From Alphaproteobacteria bacterium (GTDB taxonomy: Bacteria > Pseudomonadota > Alphaproteobacteria > RF32 > CAG-239), in contig JAFUXF010000004.1 of NCBI GenBank assembly GCA_017477185.1, positions 53,132 through 117,131 on the forward strand: a stretch of 64,000 nt of DNA, in the 5' to 3' direction. The translations under genes and the position numbers were made by a program. This document shows positions 17,555-49,392 of this stretch, in pieces. Within the stretch, counting starts at the first letter, position 1. Each line of letters starts with the position of its first letter. The notes under the pieces were generated by a model that did not search any database, was not told the DNA's origin, and worked only from the letters and a program-made list of their open reading frames with translations.

Positions 17555-17602
17555 AATTGGTGGGCGCTGAGAGGTTCGAACTCCCGACCCTCTCGGTGTA
17601 AA
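17555..17602. repeat. att core copy (orphan 3' half of tRNA-Val)
   Basis: aattggtgggcgctgagaggttcgaactcccgaccctctcggtgtaaa is identical to 49314-49361. Confidence 0.9.
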
Positions 17603-17767: not shown

Positions 17768-19021
17768 ATGGCAGGCAAAATTCAGAAATCAAAATTTTCA
17801 GGAATTCGCTATCGAGAAAGCGACACAAGAAAAAACGGAATAAGAAAAGATCGCTATTTCTTTCTAAGGTACAAAAGAAACGGAAAAGACATTGAGGAGG
17901 GTTTCGGTTGGGAATCGGAGGGCTTCACAGAATCCGCAGCTTATGAAGAACTTTGCTTGATTAAGCAAAACATTAAAACAGGATCCGGACATTTCAGCCT
18001 TAAAGAGAAAAGAGAGAAAGAACAGGCAGAAAGAGATGCCACCGCAGCCAAAAACATTACAATTAACGCCTTTTTTGAGGAATATTTCATTCCTTATCAC
18101 TTAAACAATAAAACAGAAAAAACAAAGGATAATCAAATAAAACTCTATGAAAAACATATAAAAAACGAGCTTGGCCATAAATATCTTAATGATGTTACGC
18201 GATTCGATATAGAGAAAATAAAAGCAGAAATGGTCCAAAAGAATTACGCCGCTGCAACAATAAATTATATAATTGGGATTATTAAAAGCATTTTTAACCG
18301 TGCAGCGGCTTTCGATAAGTTCGACAAGAAGAATCCGGCCGAACTTGTGGAATCCGTCATAAAGGACAATAAAAGAACGCGTTGGTTGACAAAAGAGGAA
18401 GCTGAAAAATTACTTTTTGCGCTTAAAACAATGAAATTAACGGATAAAAAGGCTTTTGCTTATGATTATTATGAAAAGTTCAAAACATCTCAGCTTTATG
18501 AAATGGCTTTAATAAGTCTATTTTGCGGTTTGCGAGCCAAGGAATTAAGATTTCTTACTGTTTCGGATGTTGACTTCAATACTGGCCAAATATTCATAAG
18601 AGATCCAAAAAACAAAGAAAGTCGATATGTTCCAATGCCGCAACTTATTTTTACGCTACTTAAACAACGTATTGATAATATTCTGGGGCTTGAGCCAAAC
18701 GATTATTTATTCCGGGCAAATAATGGGGAACAGCTTCCGGAAATATCCGATCAGTTCTATCGGATTGTCGCTCGGCTCGGTTTTAATGATAATATTGTAG
18801 ATGACCGGCAAAAGGTTGTTTTTCATACGCTCAGACACACTTATGCAAGTTGGCTTATTCAATCAGGCGTTCCTAAGTATGTCGTTAAAAAATTGCTCGG
18901 TCATAAAAAAGATGAAATGACGGATCGATATGCACACCTTGCCCCGGATAACTTTAATCAGGCTGCGCAAATTATAGATAATTCATATATGTTAGCGATT
19001 CCCTCGACTTCCGGAAGCTAA
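17768..19021 (+). CDS. int: tyrosine-type phage integrase
   Basis: C-terminal HTLRHTYASWLIQSG...LLGH...RYAHL, and an N-terminal arm-binding-like GIRYRE..DRYFFLRYKRNGK. Confidence 0.9.
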   Translation: MAGKIQKSKFSGIRYRESDTRKNGIRKDRYFFLRYKRNGKDIEEGFGWESEGFTESAAYEELCLIKQNIKTGSGHFSLKEKREKEQAERDATAAKNITINAFFEEYFIPYHLNNKTEKTKDNQIKLYEKHIKNELGHKYLNDVTRFDIEKIKAEMVQKNYAAATINYIIGIIKSIFNRAAAFDKFDKKNPAELVESVIKDNKRTRWLTKEEAEKLLFALKTMKLTDKKAFAYDYYEKFKTSQLYEMALISLFCGLRAKELRFLTVSDVDFNTGQIFIRDPKNKESRYVPMPQLIFTLLKQRIDNILGLEPNDYLFRANNGEQLPEISDQFYRIVARLGFNDNIVDDRQKVVFHTLRHTYASWLIQSGVPKYVVKKLLGHKKDEMTDRYAHLAPDNFNQAAQIIDNSYMLAIPSTSGS

Positions 19022-39045: not shown

Positions 39046-39130
39046 ATTATGAAAATCGTAATATTTCAATAAAAAGATGTCAAGCATAAAATTACGAATT
39101 TCGTAATTTACTTTTTACGATTTTCGTAAT
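39046..39130. promoter_or_regulatory. tripartite operator in the cro/cI intergenic region
   Basis: 17-bp palindromes at 39046-39062 (attatgaaaatcgtaat), 39091-39107 (attacgaatttcgtaat) and 39114-39130 (tttacgattttcgtaat). A minus-strand TTGACA at 39084-39079 has its -10 inside the first operator. Confidence 0.75.
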
Positions 39131-39157
39131 ACACTAAAGAAAACAAAGGGCTTGACA

Positions 39158-39829
39158 ATGTACGAATTTATCAAAACACGATTAAAAGACATGGGGAAAA
39201 CCCAAAAGCAACTTGCTGAGGCAATTCATATTCAAACGCCTCATTTAAGTGCTATTTTTAAGGGAATTCGCCGTATTCAAGCAAGCGAAATTGCACCAAT
39301 TGCTCGTTTTCTCAATATCAATACAGAAGAATTTGCTCGCTATATCGCAGGAGAAAATAAAACAAAAGAACTATTGCCATTAGATATCAATACGATTTAT
39401 AGAGTTGGCTATGTCCAAGCAGGGAAATTTAATGAAGCGTGTCAATTACCGGAGGCAGAATGGGAAGCAATCCCTTATCCTGTCAATGATAATTACAAAA
39501 AATGTCATTTATTCGCTCTTGGCGTTCTCGGCGACAGCATGAATTTAATCTTTCCGCCTGAGAAAACGACTTTAATTTGTTGCCCTTATGCTGAATGGGT
39601 GGAATCTAACCCGGATCAGGACATTGAGGGTAAATATATAATTGCGTATCGTAAAAATGCAGATGGCTTATGCGAGGCCACTGTTAAGAAATACGCTAAA
39701 ATAGATGATAACACGATAATTCTTGTCGCAGAATCCTCAAATCCGGAAATCAAGCCTATTGTTATTCATCCGGATAATAATGAATATGACATCGCCGCCG
39801 TTGTTATTGGCGATATGCGGACATATTGA
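39158..39829 (+). CDS. cI: CI-like repressor (XRE HTH plus S24 LexA-type peptidase domain)
   Basis: KTQKQLAEAIHIQTPHLSAIFKG forms the HTH. The C-terminal domain has LGDSMN...KKY, the Ser/Lys dyad context. Confidence 0.85.
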   Translation: MYEFIKTRLKDMGKTQKQLAEAIHIQTPHLSAIFKGIRRIQASEIAPIARFLNINTEEFARYIAGENKTKELLPLDINTIYRVGYVQAGKFNEACQLPEAEWEAIPYPVNDNYKKCHLFALGVLGDSMNLIFPPEKTTLICCPYAEWVESNPDQDIEGKYIIAYRKNADGLCEATVKKYAKIDDNTIILVAESSNPEIKPIVIHPDNNEYDIAAVVIGDMRTY

Positions 39830-39841
39830 AAGGACACAAAA

Positions 39842-40609
39842 ATGAATAAAAAACTTATAATTACTTTTCTCTTTTTTTCTCTATGTGCCTGTCAAATCCC
39901 TACTTATCGCTATACTTCTCGTAACACAGGAGCAACATTAAAAGATAAAACCGTTGTAATATTTGAAAATGGAGGAAGTATTACAAACGCAAAATTAGTT
40001 GCAACTCTTCATAATATCTTAATAAACAATGGTATGAAATCCATTCCTATGGAGGAAGCTCTTGATAAAATCAGTAAGAAAAAAGTAAAAAAATATGATT
40101 ATATCGCCACTATTGATATTGTAAAAAATGTTTATCAAACATCACAAACAATTCCTATTTATGGAAAAACAGGAATCAACTCTATAAATACAACATCAAA
40201 TGGACAAGCATATACCAACATATCTGGAGATTATAATTCAAATAAAAATTATAATTATGGCGGCTATACTAAAACAGGCTCATTTAATGGTTATGCCAAT
40301 ACAAATTATTATGGCAATTCAACAACGAAAATAAATTATGATTATGGAATAACAGGATACCAAAATAGAATTGTAAATAATTTTTTAAGCTGTGTTTATG
40401 TTAGCATTCGAAAATTTGATTATACGACAAAATTTAACAATCTTCCTGTTGTTCACGAAAGTAGAATATGTGTTGATGACTATAGTAATGATGATGAGTT
40501 TATTAGCTATATTCAAGATATTTATAATCAAAATGTCCTTTCTATTGATACTTCTCTAGATTATACTTGTCAACATAATGGATTAACAGGAAGCTGCCAA
40601 CAAAACTAA
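39842..40609 (+). CDS. prophage lipoprotein, N/Y/T-rich (candidate superinfection-exclusion factor)
   Basis: Begins MNKKLIITFLFFSLCAC, a lipobox-like signal. Starts 12 nt after the cI stop. Confidence 0.6.
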   Translation: MNKKLIITFLFFSLCACQIPTYRYTSRNTGATLKDKTVVIFENGGSITNAKLVATLHNILINNGMKSIPMEEALDKISKKKVKKYDYIATIDIVKNVYQTSQTIPIYGKTGINSINTTSNGQAYTNISGDYNSNKNYNYGGYTKTGSFNGYANTNYYGNSTTKINYDYGITGYQNRIVNNFLSCVYVSIRKFDYTTKFNNLPVVHESRICVDDYSNDDEFISYIQDIYNQNVLSIDTSLDYTCQHNGLTGSCQQN

Positions 40610-40622
40610 GAAAGATACATAA

Positions 40623-41033
40623 ATGCTGCATTATTATCCAAATAGAGGAGAGGTTTTATTATGTGACTATCGCGGCTTCAAAGAACCGGAAATGGTAAAA
40701 GTTCGTCCGGTAATAGTTATATCTCCACGCTTTCGTTCTCGTCCTCGATTATGTACTGTTGTTCCTTTAAGTACAACCGCACCGGATCCGGTAGAATCCT
40801 TTCATATGACAATTTCATTTCCTCGTTTATTGCCAGAACCTTTTAATGCCCCATTCCATTGGATAAAAGCAGATATGATTAATACTGTATCAATGGACAG
40901 ATTATCTCTTATTCGCTGTGGACGTTTACCTAACGGACAAAGAAAATATTATCAAGAAAAGGCTACACCGGAGCAATTAGCTGAATTAGAATCTAAAATT
41001 CAGATCGCACTAGGAATAAAACAAAGGGGCTAA
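40623..41033 (+). CDS. PemK/MazF-fold (YifN-like) protein with no adjacent antitoxin
   Basis: PNRGEVLLCDYRGFKEPEMVKVRPVIVISPR...CTVVPLSTT matches the PemK N-terminal SH3-like pattern. Confidence 0.55.
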   Translation: MLHYYPNRGEVLLCDYRGFKEPEMVKVRPVIVISPRFRSRPRLCTVVPLSTTAPDPVESFHMTISFPRLLPEPFNAPFHWIKADMINTVSMDRLSLIRCGRLPNGQRKYYQEKATPEQLAELESKIQIALGIKQRG

Positions 41034-41259
41034 AAATAGCCCCTTAACAACACCATGTACCAATTGGTATCTCCGTACATGGCGACCTTCGACCGATGTC
41101 GAGGTTTTAAAAGCCCGATGCTAAAAGCAGAGCGGGAACAGTTCAAAATCTTACATACCTATGTGTCATATATATCATATTTTTTATTAACAGTCAATTA
41201 ATAAAAAGCACATATCCATAACAAACTTTCACTCCGCTTCATTTAGCTTCATTTTATCC

Positions 41260-41285
41260 ACCGCTGCAAAGCGGTATTTTTTTTG
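41260..41285 (+). terminator. Rho-independent terminator ending the cI-side transcript
   Basis: Stem accgct/agcggt followed by aTTTTTTTT. Confidence 0.65.
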
Positions 41286-41423
41286 CCTTGATTTTCCTTA
41301 ATATTTCATTTTTTACAAACTGCACTGTATAAAAATTATTTAATAAAAAATATTGACAAATATTCATAAAATATTTACATATTCCTCCTAATATGGTATT
41401 ATACCATTAGAGGAGATGATAAA

Positions 41424-41975
41424 TTGCCAAATATTGCTTTCAAAGTAAATCCAGACAAAGCACTTGAAGCGATTGTTTATATTGCTCATAAATTAGGTTG
41501 TGTGGATAAATACCACGTCGTTAAAACCATGTTTTTTGCTGATAAAGAGCATTTGAATAGATATGCCAGACCTATTTTAGGTGATACATATATCAGGATG
41601 AGAAATGGTCCGGTTCCATCATATGTTCTTGACATAATCAATCTGAAAGAAGATAAGATAAGTTTTGATGTTTTTGTGAAAGCAAAAGCGGCTCTAGAGG
41701 TCGGTTCGGATAAAAAACAGACAATAACAGCTAGACGAGAGCCAGATTTGAGCTTTTTTTCCGATACAGATTTAGAATGCTTGGATAATGCAATTAAGTT
41801 TTGCAAAGATAAAAATTTTGATGATTTAAAAGAAATTACACACGAAGAAAAAGCATGGAAAAAAGCTTCTATTAACGGTTGTATGGATTATGAATTGTTT
41901 TTAGATGATGATAATCCTTACAAAGAAGAAATTATTCAGGATTTAAAAGAAGATAGTTTGTGGATGGCTTTCTAA
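41424..41975 (+). CDS. SocA/Panacea (DUF4065) domain antitoxin-like protein
   Basis: KYHVVKTMFFADKEHLNRYARPILGDTYIRMRNGPVPSYV and SDTDLECLDNAI...ITHEEKAWKKA. TTG start with a GAGGAG RBS. Confidence 0.7.
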   Translation: MPNIAFKVNPDKALEAIVYIAHKLGCVDKYHVVKTMFFADKEHLNRYARPILGDTYIRMRNGPVPSYVLDIINLKEDKISFDVFVKAKAALEVGSDKKQTITARREPDLSFFSDTDLECLDNAIKFCKDKNFDDLKEITHEEKAWKKASINGCMDYELFLDDDNPYKEEIIQDLKEDSLWMAF

Positions 41976-41976
41976 A

Positions 41977-42348
41977 ATGGCTTTTAAGACCGGATATTTA
42001 TACTTTATCAACCCTTGCCAGGCCTCTGTTCCGCCTAAGCCTAAGTTAGCGGTTTGTATGTCAGCAACACATAGCTTATTTTATTTAATCAATTCGTGTG
42101 ACAAGGTGCGTCCATACCAACACGAAAAAGGGCATATTGTTATACTGGAACAACACTTATTGGTTGCTTTAGTGCATGATTCCTACATCAATGTTGCTAA
42201 ACCAAGGATTATTGAGAGCGGTGAATATTCACACTCAACAGAGCGAGAAAAAATACCCAATAACGTTTTATTAAAAATAAAAAAACAGGCTTTAAGTGAT
42301 AGAAAATTGCAAAGCATATATAAAAATATTATCAATAATCCTGATTAA
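41977..42348 (+). CDS. unassigned 123-aa protein, candidate cognate toxin
   Basis: Starts 1 nt after the stop of the Panacea-domain gene. There is a weak PemK-like pattern (GYLYFINP...KPKLAVCMS...DSYINVAKPRII). Confidence 0.45.
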   Translation: MAFKTGYLYFINPCQASVPPKPKLAVCMSATHSLFYLINSCDKVRPYQHEKGHIVILEQHLLVALVHDSYINVAKPRIIESGEYSHSTEREKIPNNVLLKIKKQALSDRKLQSIYKNIINNPD

Positions 42349-42640
42349 TTAAACTTACCTCATTATCATTAACTGACTTTATCTTTTGTAGTAAATGAAA
42401 AATTACCTGCCTCTTTTGATTTTTTGGAAGTTACAGATCAGCTTTTTTTCTTCTTCTAACAGGTTAGAAAAATCCTCATAAACAATATTTATTCGGTTGT
42501 TCTCTATATTGTAACCATTTCCAATTTTTTTAAATTTGCACATATAAAATAATTTATTCACACAGTTTCACATCATTTCACTTTATCCACCGCTTTTAAG
42601 ACCGTATTTTTTTTGATTTTCCCAAATTGCATAAAATTAA

Positions 42641-42714
42641 ATTACGATTTTCGTAATTTTTTTCTTGACATTAAATTATGATAAACGTAATAATTAAATT
42701 ACGATTTTCGTAAT
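42641..42714. promoter_or_regulatory. second tripartite operator overlapping the rightward early promoter
   Basis: Operators at 42641-42657, 42675-42691 and 42698-42714 share the palindrome of the cro/cI set. TTGACA at 42665-42670, a 17-nt spacer, then TAATAA at 42688-42693. Confidence 0.75.
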
Positions 42715-42736
42715 TTTTATTCAAAGGGGATGACAA

Positions 42737-42886
42737 ATGAAAGAACACGATATTTTTAATTCACACGAACAAATTTCAAAAATTGACGCATGGATAGAAC
42801 GCGCTGACAGAATTACTGAGTTTGTCGGCACTATGCTTATAACATCAATGATCATTCTTCTAATTTGGCAATATCTCATTCGCTAG
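42737..42886 (+). CDS. small early protein with a C-terminal TM helix (49 aa)
   Basis: AGGGGA RBS 6 nt upstream of the ATG. Below the length cut-off of the ORF track. Translated by hand as MKEHDIFNSHEQ...LITSMIILLIWQYLIR. Confidence 0.45.
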   Translation: MKEHDIFNSHEQISKIDAWIERADRITEFVGTMLITSMIILLIWQYLIR

Positions 42887-42894
42887 GAATGCTC

Positions 42895-43416
42895 ATGCAA
42901 ACCGGATTATATATCTATACAGATAAAACAGCTTCCCACCGCTTTAATGCAAATAAAAAATTGCTTGGAATATTCTGTCGGATAACAGAAATAAAATCCA
43001 TTGTCATTAAGCCGATAGAAACTCCGAGAAAATTAAAATGGGAAGAAGCACAAGCCTTTTGTGCAATGTTTGACTGCAAAGCACCAACCCGGCGGGAATT
43101 ATGCGGAATTTGGCTTAATAAGCAAGCAATCAACAAAAAATTAACCACCGCCGGACTTCCGGAAATTAAAGACGAATTTTATTGGGCGGCTGATACTTCA
43201 TCCGAGAAATTATCTTATGGCCTAAATATGGCCAACGGTATCGCCGGAGAAATAAACGCAAGGGGACGTTGCCTCATTATCCCGATAATTCCCTTGTTTA
43301 CTCCACCACATAGCAACGAGAGGTATAAAATGGATACAAATTCAAAAGCCTTAGAAAATCTCGCCGTTATTCGCCAAATTTTGGAACAATCCAAGATGAA
43401 TCCGAATTTTGAGTAA
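42895..43416 (+). CDS. DUF1566 (Lcl C-terminal-like) domain protein
   Basis: KLKWEEAQAFCAMFDCKAPTRRELCGIW...EFYWAADTSS. Confidence 0.45.
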   Translation: MQTGLYIYTDKTASHRFNANKKLLGIFCRITEIKSIVIKPIETPRKLKWEEAQAFCAMFDCKAPTRRELCGIWLNKQAINKKLTTAGLPEIKDEFYWAADTSSEKLSYGLNMANGIAGEINARGRCLIIPIIPLFTPPHSNERYKMDTNSKALENLAVIRQILEQSKMNPNFE

Positions 43417-45769: not shown

Positions 45770-46591
45770 ATGGATAATGAAAATGAAATTATAGAGGAAA
45801 AATACGGCATTTTACCGGATATGGATTGGCTGCCAATCGAACAGCTAATCATTGACGGTACTTATCAAAGAGATATTAAAGGCCGTAGATCTGAAAATAA
45901 TATAATAAAAATCATGGAAACTTTCTCTTGGAGTAAGTTTGCGCCACTTACCGTTAATGATAATCAAAACGGCACATTTTCCGTTATTGATGGCCAGCAT
46001 AGACTTGAAGCCATTAAGCGACTTGGCGATATTAAAAATGTTCCTTGCTATATAATTCCCGGAGAAACTATTCAGCAACAAGCTAAAACATTTACAGAAA
46101 CAAACCAAAATCGTGTTTGCGTCAATAATTTTGATTTATACAAGGCAAAATTAGCCTCCGGAGATAAAGAAGCTGTTAGATTAAATGATTTTTGCCTTAT
46201 GCATGATTTAATCGTTTCGCCCAATGGATCTATCCCCAATCGGCCAAATATCGTTCTAGCGATAAACACTTTCAAAAAATTATTGCGGACCAATCGAGAA
46301 AATGACCTTGATTTCGCTGTTGGCATTATAAAACAAGCGTTTCCCGCCTTAAATGGTCAATATAGAAGTGATTTAGTCGTTTACTTAGCTGACGCCAATA
46401 AAAAATATGGAACTCGCTTTAATCGTCAGGCAATTATAAACGCCCTGAGAATTTCCGGAAATGCCGATATGCTTCACCGAAAAGCCGTAAACGCTCGCTC
46501 AATTGATAGATCTATATCTCATCAATCTCATTACGAAAGAATTCTTAATAATGAATATAACCGACAATATAAATTATTGAAAGCAAAATAA
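45770..46591 (+). CDS. ParB/Srx-superfamily protein with a DGQHR motif
   Basis: YQRDIKGRRS...FAPLTVN...FSVIDGQHRLEAIKRLG. Confidence 0.65.
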   Translation: MDNENEIIEEKYGILPDMDWLPIEQLIIDGTYQRDIKGRRSENNIIKIMETFSWSKFAPLTVNDNQNGTFSVIDGQHRLEAIKRLGDIKNVPCYIIPGETIQQQAKTFTETNQNRVCVNNFDLYKAKLASGDKEAVRLNDFCLMHDLIVSPNGSIPNRPNIVLAINTFKKLLRTNRENDLDFAVGIIKQAFPALNGQYRSDLVVYLADANKKYGTRFNRQAIINALRISGNADMLHRKAVNARSIDRSISHQSHYERILNNEYNRQYKLLKAK

Positions 46592-46804
46592 ATGGACAGT
46601 TTGACATCATCCCCGGCCAATAGAGAATTAATCCGGTTATTTTTAGAAGCATCCGGCCTTGTTATTAAACTTACGCACAAACTCGAAAATGCCAATATTC
46701 CGGATTCTGATCTTCATTTAGCAGCCGCACGAGATTTTATCCACCGCAACCAACTTTATAACATCTCTTTAGGCGTTATTGCTAAGGATATGCCTGAAGA
46801 CTAA
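46592..46804 (+). CDS. hypothetical early protein
   Basis: 70-aa ORF abutting the previous stop. Confidence 0.4.
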   Translation: MDSLTSSPANRELIRLFLEASGLVIKLTHKLENANIPDSDLHLAAARDFIHRNQLYNISLGVIAKDMPED

Positions 46805-49313: not shown

Positions 49314-49361
49314 AATTGGTGGGCGCTGAGAGGTTCGAACTCCCGACCCTCTCGGTGTAAA
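49314..49361. repeat. att core copy inside the intact tRNA-Val
   Basis: Identical to 17555-17602. Confidence 0.9.
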
Positions 49362-49392
49362 CGAGATGCTCTTCCAGCTGAGCTAAGCGCCC
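49317..49392 (-). tRNA. tRNA-Val (anticodon TAC)
   Basis: 76-nt cloverleaf folded by hand: acceptor GGGCGCT/AGCGCCC, anticodon loop TTTACAC, T-loop TTCGAAC, encoded CCA. Confidence 0.85.

Follow-up and report, generated by a model that had tools for sequence, protein, structure and literature searches.

In the window analysed here, a stretch of 64,000 nucleotides (nt) from an Alphaproteobacteria bacterium (assembly GCA_017477185.1, contig JAFUXF010000004.1, positions 53,132 to 117,131), two adjacent open reading frames (ORFs) on the forward strand, designated panA (41424..41975) and panT (41977..42348), probably form a PanAT-type toxin-antitoxin (TA) module of type II. The gene pair is an accessory element in the immunity region of a prophage that resides at a tRNA-Val gene. 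In this module the upstream gene encodes a standalone Panacea-domain protein, PanA, while the 123-aa product of the downstream gene, PanT, is on the basis of structural modelling a very divergent MazF/PemK-fold protein and not a new toxin fold. The combination of PanA with a MazF-fold toxin has already been described and validated in other bacteria; to it the window contributes a further case, carried by a prophage of uncultured rumen Alphaproteobacteria, and the current understanding of TA systems is unchanged by these findings. An earlier interpretation made from the letters of the same DNA (hereafter the sequence-only reading) had described both ORFs and their 1-nt spacing as they were found here, and had suggested that the 123-aa ORF might encode a novel toxin domain. 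This suggestion is not supported, as the predicted structure has the MazF/PemK fold and such PanA pairs are already published (Kurata et al., 2022, PMC8832971).

The upstream gene, panA, begins with a TTG codon located 7 nt downstream of a GAGGAG sequence (41411..41416, + strand) that reads as its ribosome-binding site, and it encodes a protein of 183 aa in which the Panacea/SocA domain occupies residues 33-146. The product matches PF13274 (SocA_Panacea) with 79.5 bits (E 4.7e-22), residues 33-146 aligning to model positions 2-113 of 113, against a Pfam gathering cut-off of 25.7 bits, and it also matches phrog_1281 in PHROGs. Both motifs on which the sequence-only reading had based its Panacea/DUF4065 assignment, FFADKEHLNRYARPILGDTYIRMRNGPVP and ITHEEKAWKKA, are present in the translation, and the assignment itself is borne out by the profile match. 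In Pfam, the panA product has no helix-turn-helix (HTH), AbrB or ribbon-helix-helix (RHH) match, and there is no extra N-terminal DNA-binding domain. Homologues of PanA number 94, one of them 100% identical and derived from an Alphaproteobacteria metagenome-assembled genome (MAG). The C-terminal tail of the protein, comprising its last 30 residues (approximately residues 154-183), is conserved in clade alignment A3 and is acidic, with a net charge of -8.

The downstream gene, panT, begins with an ATG codon that is separated from the TAA stop of panA by a single spacer nucleotide, A41976. The ratio of nonsynonymous to synonymous substitution rates (dN/dS) for panT is 0.06 at a dS of 0.95 when compared with the 87%-identical copy in contig L001, for which reason panT is regarded as a real gene, and 0.18 when compared with the 55%-identical protein of contig L019; for panA the corresponding values are 0.015 and 0.125. 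These ratios strongly indicate that both genes are under purifying selection.

As the sequence-only reading had stated, the 123-aa protein matches nothing that can be named by sequence: searches with the protein alone gave no match in Pfam, PHROGs, NCBIfam, PADLOC or PDB sequences, and profile searches of PDB and Pfam that started from panT family alignments gave no named family (PDB profile matches to CNS1, a GCN5 bromodomain and IspD were discarded as chance, all having E of at least 0.08). A HMMER search of 1.84 billion representative proteins gave 13 matches at E <= 0.001, 12 of which are small proteins of 96-140 aa that align well and carry a clear signature; the thirteenth, which is 2310 aa long and lies just at the threshold (E 8.8e-4), was left out of the family. 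A word-indexed search returned a single close homologue and its profile version 52 metagenomic proteins without names, and in neither search did a named or published cluster emerge to which the family could be linked. The close relatives are all of metagenome or MAG origin, and their annotation goes no further than 'hypothetical protein'. The family signature consists of G6, Y9, P19, K21, K23, C27, F35, N39, S/T40, L65, H67 and S/C69, and among 62 members K23 is conserved in 61/61, N39 in 62/62, S/T40 in 62/62 and H67 in 48/62. No match was obtained in a genome scan with the single panT protein, or by megablast and tblastn of GenBank phage nucleotide sequences; when a family member from Rhizobium was used as the query of a tblastn against plasmids, three Sinorhizobium replicons gave matches.

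While modelling of the 123-aa ORF by AlphaFold from the single sequence was uninformative (pLDDT 35), AlphaFold 2 supplied with a 14-sequence family alignment gave a model with a pLDDT of 95.1 and a pTM of 0.87. When this model was compared with PDB by Foldseek, the top 50 matches were all chains of the MazF/EndoA/MoxT type (probability 1.0, E from 1.8e-4, TM 0.52-0.62), and in the viral structure library BFVD the 11 best matches (probability at least 0.96) were all PemK-like or endoribonuclease proteins. The model thus belongs to the MazF/CcdB-type SH3-like barrel fold, with TM values of 0.52-0.63 over the PDB and viral matches together. The sequence-only reading had perceived a faint PemK-like pattern in this ORF, and that perception is matched by the model, which hits MazF, EndoA and PemK structures only; it had also proposed a fold search on a predicted structure, holding that a toxin assigned to a characterised family would be real but not novel, and the MazF/PemK-type matches place PanT in that category.

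At the sequence level, 5 of 62 relatives match PF02452 below threshold, with a best E of 0.0012, and no other Pfam family is matched by more than one of them; the gathering score of PF02452 is not reached by the window PanT. An hhalign comparison of the PanT family with an alignment of MazF, Kid and PemK proteins was co-linear across 92 columns (E 0.0022); the reference set consisted of two PemK homologues together with B. subtilis EndoA, E. coli MazF and Kid, and two of these sequences, Kid not among them, were confirmed against PDB. The catalytic residues of MazF are an Arg (R25 in B. subtilis, R29 in E. coli) and a Thr (T48 in B. subtilis, T52 in E. coli). In the hhalign comparison, the invariant K23 of the PanT family falls onto the catalytic R25 of B. 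subtilis MazF, and S/T40, which is likewise invariant and stands at the end of strand 3 in the model, would be the counterpart of the catalytic Thr. The three invariant positions K23, N39 and S/T40 would constitute a variation on the MazF active site that can be put to the test.

The two genes are also found together well beyond the window. Six divergent PanT relatives of 25-45% identity for which contigs were examined all adjoin a PanA; four of them lie directly 3' of a full-length Panacea protein of 181-188 aa, with the remaining neighbours differing, and in the short contigs L011 and L008 the gene 5' of panT is cut by the contig start, L008 keeping just the C-terminal end of PanA. For a wider survey, the PanA-clade alignment was scanned over one genome per GTDB species, which gave 80 loci, and the partner was sought by a family hidden Markov model. 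A panT homologue is present downstream on the same strand at 76 of these 80 loci, and in two of the four unpaired loci the contig stops right after panA. The distance between the genes is at most 30 nt at 68/76 paired loci, the commonest arrangement being a 4-nt overlap (24 loci), followed by a 1-nt overlap (12 loci). Among the hosts are Rhizobium, Sphingobium, Xanthobacter, Mesorhizobium, Bosea and Shinella, and further Desulfobacteraceae, Nitrospirales, Gastranaerophilales and Bacteroides fragilis. The pairing is near-obligate in this PanA clade, and the neighbourhood search that the sequence-only reading had also proposed has in this way come out in favour of a linked pair; panA lies in a conserved two-gene operon, as is characteristic of Panacea genes with their variable partners.

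Homologues of panT that had not been called as genes, 116-125 aa in length, occur directly 3' of panA at 3552-3920 in contig L017 (Rhizobium tumorigenes), at 3571-3924 in L018 and at other genome loci of the series L022-L101. The toxin family seems to be systematically under-annotated. Since partner ORFs are often missed by gene callers, annotation-based TA surveys may count such PanAs as orphans, and this PanT lineage may be under-represented in them.

The published record on PanA offers close parallels. The Panacea domain was named by Kurata et al. (2022), who validated nine PanA-neutralised pairs (PMC8832971). Among these nine are the PanTs of Pseudomonas moraviensis and Bifidobacterium ruminantium, which have no CDD match but match EndoA, PemK and MazF in HHpred; both are specific inhibitors of protein synthesis that PanA neutralises (Kurata et al., 2022). 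In Dataset S1 of that paper, two clusters are of interest, pT5 (HHpred match to MazF at 99.5%) and pT6, the latter containing the validated P. moraviensis protein; both are listed there with noNTD PanA, with the antitoxin before the toxin and with gaps of -4 to +9 nt, and their members include Rhizobium, Mesorhizobium, Paracoccus and Gallibacterium, with WP_083201923.1, WP_116809181.1 and WP_075853782.1 among the member proteins (Kurata et al., 2022). It has since been reported that MazF/PemK is among the commonest folds in the NetFlax network, and that a standalone Panacea domain is able to neutralise directly, whereas neutralisation by other PanAs is the work of an extra segment at the N- or C-terminus (Ernits et al., 2023, PMC10440598).

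Several points count against the interpretation of the pair as a TA module with a MazF-type toxin. In the published screen, a predicted MazF-type PanT of Flavobacterium xanthum was non-toxic in E. coli and the Chryseobacterium bovis pair was toxic on both sides (Kurata et al., 2022). The fold alone is thus no guarantee of a working TA. For the window protein, the panT product has no PF02452 match even at E <= 10, the Foldseek E of ~1e-4 is modest and the TM only ~0.6, and the hhalign probability for the PanT family against MazF is just 13%. Throughout the PanT family a Lys stands where MazF has its catalytic Arg, and the equivalence of S40 with the catalytic Thr was taken from the secondary-structure register rather than from a superposition. 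No terminator is predicted 3' of panT, because the right copy of the flanking repeat described below has lost its hairpin. Finally, the gyrase poison CcdB has the same fold as MazF.

This last point leads to an alternative in which PanT is a toxin of the MazF/CcdB fold but no RNase, acting as a gyrase poison in the manner of CcdB or on some other target, with PanA still serving as its antitoxin. Such a toxin would be in keeping with the replacement of the catalytic Arg by Lys in all family members and with the marginal similarity of PanT to PF02452, and in the HHpred lists for pT5 CcdB stands just after MazF, while the MazF-fold PanTs that were validated inhibit translation specifically (Kurata et al., 2022). 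CcdB is nevertheless absent from the top 50 PDB matches, all of which are MazF-type RNases; in the family alignment K23 falls on the catalytic Arg, and the residue at the end of strand 3, S/T40, is Ser or Thr in every member. A non-RNase toxin is for these reasons considered very improbable, and an RNase-type PanT is preferred.

A second alternative holds that the pair is conserved without being a TA system at all: PanT would then lack toxicity and might be an adaptor that binds RNA or DNA, and the role of PanA would be another one, for example that of a protease adaptor in the way that SocA delivers SocB to ClpXP. TA operons typically show the near-obligate linkage and the overlap of start and stop codons that are seen here, which speaks against this alternative, as do the strong purifying selection on both genes, the conservation of the putative catalytic positions in the PanT family and the movement of the pair across unrelated contexts, namely phages, chromosomes and different phyla. 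It gains something from the source records, which name PanA-type Panacea relatives merely 'uncharacterized phage-associated protein', and from screen results showing that several predicted PanT candidates, one of them MazF-like, were non-toxic in E. coli (Kurata et al., 2022). Taken together, these points make a non-TA pair unlikely, if less so than a TA pair with a toxin that is no RNase, and the TA module remains the interpretation followed here.

The module may have a promoter of its own. The candidate region, found by a consensus scan, extends over 41353..41402 on the + strand and contains TTGACA at 41353-41358 as well as TTTACA(41374-41379)-17 nt-TGgTATTAT(41394-41402). The sequence-only reading had placed the promoter at TTGACA; the hexamer exists, one base to the right of where it had been put, but it has no good -10 at 16-18 nt spacing, and the scan instead favours TTTACA(41374)-17 nt-TATTAT(41402), with its upstream TG, as the candidate cassette promoter. 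Both promoter hexamers are kept in the 74%-related L019 cassette. Promoter-like matches in the AT-rich cassette stretch number 18, against 22.7 expected from shuffles, and are thus not in excess.

Downstream of the panT stop codon, a spacer of ~190 nt (42349-42537) extends to the right repeat and is absent 3' of panT in L001. No terminator was predicted in this spacer, and an Rfam scan of 40500-43000 found no RNA family. A minus-strand ORF of 52 aa (42403-42561) was excluded from the module, as it is uncalled in identical contigs and not conserved in L001. With the terminator decayed, transcripts of the cassette might run into the early promoter region.

The cassette lies between two related sequences, which the sequence-only reading had recognised as imperfect direct repeats. 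These repeats are real and longer than had been noted: the left copy, of ~90 nt, spans 41208..41297 and the right copy 42538..42622, both given on the + strand. Their gapped local alignment scores 51, a value reached in 0/500 dinucleotide shuffles (24.4 +/- 3.9), and no other stretch of the 64-kb window matches the left copy as well as the right copy does. The two are only ~70% alike over the 90-nt alignment. A third partial match to the repeat core, at 46736, falls within coding sequence and was taken as chance. When viral contigs were scanned with exact patterns of the repeat core and of the operator, no match was obtained. The left copy holds a predicted intrinsic terminator, formed by an intact hairpin (41260-41275) and a T-run, that closes the unit of cI, lipoprotein and PemK genes. 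In the right copy, located immediately 5' of the early promoter and operators, the hairpin is decayed (42583-42614) and no terminator is predicted, which agrees with the loss of the hairpin from the second copy reported in the sequence-only reading.

The nature of the repeats is clarified by a related prophage, L102, from a JGI metagenome, which has the same repressor C-terminal domain and early genes that are 70% identical. In L102 the repressor operon ends in a single copy of the element, placed immediately 3' of its final gene and with the hairpin terminator intact, which indicates that the window repeats are two copies of a repressor-operon terminator element and not scars left by some unexplained insertion. 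The operators, early promoter and early genes of L102 (encoding 49 aa and 173 aa) follow directly after this element, with neither PemK nor PanAT between them, so that the genes flanking the cassette are adjacent in this relative. L102 is not a clean empty site for PanAT alone, because it is also without PemK and has a different lipoprotein (151 aa vs 255 aa in the window prophage). The 5' half of the right window copy is nearly identical to the single L102 copy, and the right copy is nearer to L102 than to the left copy.

Two other contigs define the extent of the mobile unit. In L019, a cassette that is 74% identical, promoter included, lies between tail genes and a lysozyme gene, and nucleotide homology with the window begins at 41353, at the promoter; with L001, nucleotide homology stops exactly at the panT stop codon. 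Given these limits, the mobile unit consists of promoter, panA and panT, and the repeats belong to the recipient site. The GC content of the cassette is 32.5%, as opposed to 36.8% for the prophage. The panA-panT module is a discrete accessory cassette, present or absent among related prophages. The sequence-only reading had spoken of a discrete inserted moron, and of this the discrete accessory cassette stands, with L102 lacking it at the same place and L019 and L001 carrying copies in other contexts, while no terminator is predicted for the module itself.

It could also be argued that nothing was inserted at this site, the arrangement with two terminators being ancestral or the product of a local duplication, and that relatives such as L102 lost genes through recombination between repeats. 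Direct repeats favour deletion as readily as they mark an insertion, the additional absence of PemK from L102 and its different lipoprotein fit a loss, and the window copies have common end sequences (GCACATAT..., ...TTGATTTTCC) that are missing from L102. The presence of the same cassette, including its promoter, at an unrelated position in L019 argues in the other direction, as does the end of the L001 homology at the panT stop codon, on account of which the promoter-panA-panT unit appears to move on its own. The ~70% likeness of the copies, with the right one nearer to L102, is more easily reconciled with recombination involving distinct phages than with a duplication that took place locally and recently, and the lower GC content of the cassette is a further point for insertion. 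An arrangement without insertion is accordingly rather unlikely, though less improbable than either of the alternatives on PanT considered above. Since L102 differs in more than the cassette, the event may have been either an insertion in the window or a loss elsewhere. If insertion is assumed, the locus shows accessory cassettes building up in the interval from the repressor gene to the second operator set via recombination at a reused terminator element.

The prophage that carries the module is ~31.8 kb long and is bounded by a 48-bp exact direct repeat (17555-17602 and 49314-49361) that is the 3' part of tRNA-Val (49317-49392), so that the two repeats are probably the attL and attR sites. 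It carries a tyrosine integrase gene (17768-19021) at its left end and a large terminase. The immunity region includes a cI-like repressor gene (39152-39829), divergent from a cro-like gene, then a gene for a 255-aa lipoprotein-like protein (39842-40609) with the lipoprotein-type signal MNKKLIITFLFFSLCAC, and then a canonical PemK/MazF gene (40623..41033, + strand; PF02452 E 4.5e-13, phrog_15698). This last gene of the repressor operon begins 14 nt after the lipoprotein-like ORF, lies directly 5' of the cassette and is an orphan, with no recognisable antitoxin. A 40%-identical PemK homologue in viral contig L016 is likewise an orphan and stands beside putative terminase genes. A 9-bp GC-rich hairpin at 41024-41045 overlaps the PemK stop codon, and it scores as a terminator for the minus strand only, because the T-run is on that side.

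Three copies of an operator-like motif, TTACGAnnTTCGTAA (repeat family D1), occur at 39047-39129 between the divergent cI-like and cro-like genes, and a second, OL-like set of three copies of TTACGAnnTTCGTAA has its sites at 42642-42713, within the border region 42635..42718 (+ strand) that forms the right edge of the immunity region. Between the two operator sets lie cI, the 255-aa lipoprotein-like gene, PemK and the PanAT cassette. Inside the second set, the promoter scan identified a strong early-gene promoter, TTGACA(42665)-18 nt-AATAAT. The repressor of L102 keeps the S24 C-terminal domain and has a different N-terminal HTH, and its operators are TAACCATTTTGGTAA, present three times at L102 4740-4835; the difference from the window repressor and operators looks like an immunity-specificity swap. 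In the early region, a 273-aa protein (45770-46591) has weak matches to DUF6551 and GmrSD_N (ParB/nuclease-like) and may serve another accessory or anti-defence function.

From these elements a mechanism can be proposed, in which we infer that PanT is toxic, that its chemistry is that of an RNase, that PanA neutralises it directly and that the pair serves a role in the lysogen. The promoter at ~41353-41402 would drive a bicistronic panA-panT mRNA, and panT would be translationally coupled to panA via the 1-nt spacer. PanT would most likely cleave single-stranded RNA and thereby block translation, with K23 replacing the catalytic Arg of MazF and S/T40 replacing the catalytic Thr. PanA would bind PanT directly and keep it inactive. 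The tail of MazE sits in the RNA-binding groove of MazF, and the acidic C-terminal tail of PanA may occupy the RNA groove of PanT in the same way. We know of no defence phenotype for the window cassette. In the lysogen, the pair could contribute to the stability of the prophage, or it could protect by abortive infection, PanT being freed when a trigger removes or remodels PanA; these roles are suggested by the location of the cassette and by the published PanA sensor hypothesis (Ernits et al., 2023). A more far-reaching proposal would have the 123-aa protein found a sequence-distinct and largely unannotated lineage of MazF-like PanTs with a Lys-Ser/Thr active site (plus Asn and His), the PanA tail act as a MazE mimic, and the pair serve as a lysogen-expressed abortive-infection defence beside an orphan PemK that PanA might also control. 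As a whole, this set of claims is speculative and rather unlikely to hold in full.

Comparison with known systems places the cassette among several relatives, and in its position it can be compared with a classical phage example. Phage lambda carries rexAB between its repressor gene and its second operator set, and other morons or defence genes expressed by lysogens likewise lie in immunity regions. The window cassette is similarly found in an immunity region, reads in the lysogenic direction and is carried by some related phages but not by others; it differs in that the gene content is unrelated and in that it seems to have its own promoter past the terminator of the repressor operon. Another relative is SocAB of Caulobacter crescentus, which includes the founding SocA/Panacea protein and has in common with the window pair the antitoxin domain family PF13274. 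In that system, SocA is a ClpXP adaptor that degrades SocB, an inhibitor of the replication clamp. The window toxin is of another fold, and both the order and the mechanism of the pair are likely to be those of a direct-binding type II system.

The MazEF, PemIK and Kis-Kid systems share with the window pair the toxin fold, the position of the antitoxin gene before the toxin gene, an acidic C-terminal tail on the antitoxin, and a basic residue together with a Ser/Thr that would take the places of the catalytic Arg and Thr. They differ in having MazE or PemI antitoxins with AbrB or RHH DNA-binding domains, as opposed to Panacea here, and the window toxin departs from theirs in falling below the PF02452 threshold, in having Lys for Arg, and in the extra invariant N39 and mostly conserved H67.

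The closest likeness is to the PanAT systems with MazF-fold toxins (Kurata et al., 2022). The likening to pT5 and pT6 is by architecture and description and not by sequence clustering, no species overlap being found between the 80 PanA genome loci and the available rows of Dataset S1, and the window lineage differs from these clusters in that the close relatives of its PanT all come from uncultured metagenome or MAG sources and are without names. As in the published systems, a standalone noNTD PanA is encoded upstream with the toxin a few nt downstream or overlapping, the toxin is without a CDD or Pfam match and yet has a MazF-like structure, and the systems are found in Alphaproteobacteria, other phyla and prophages.

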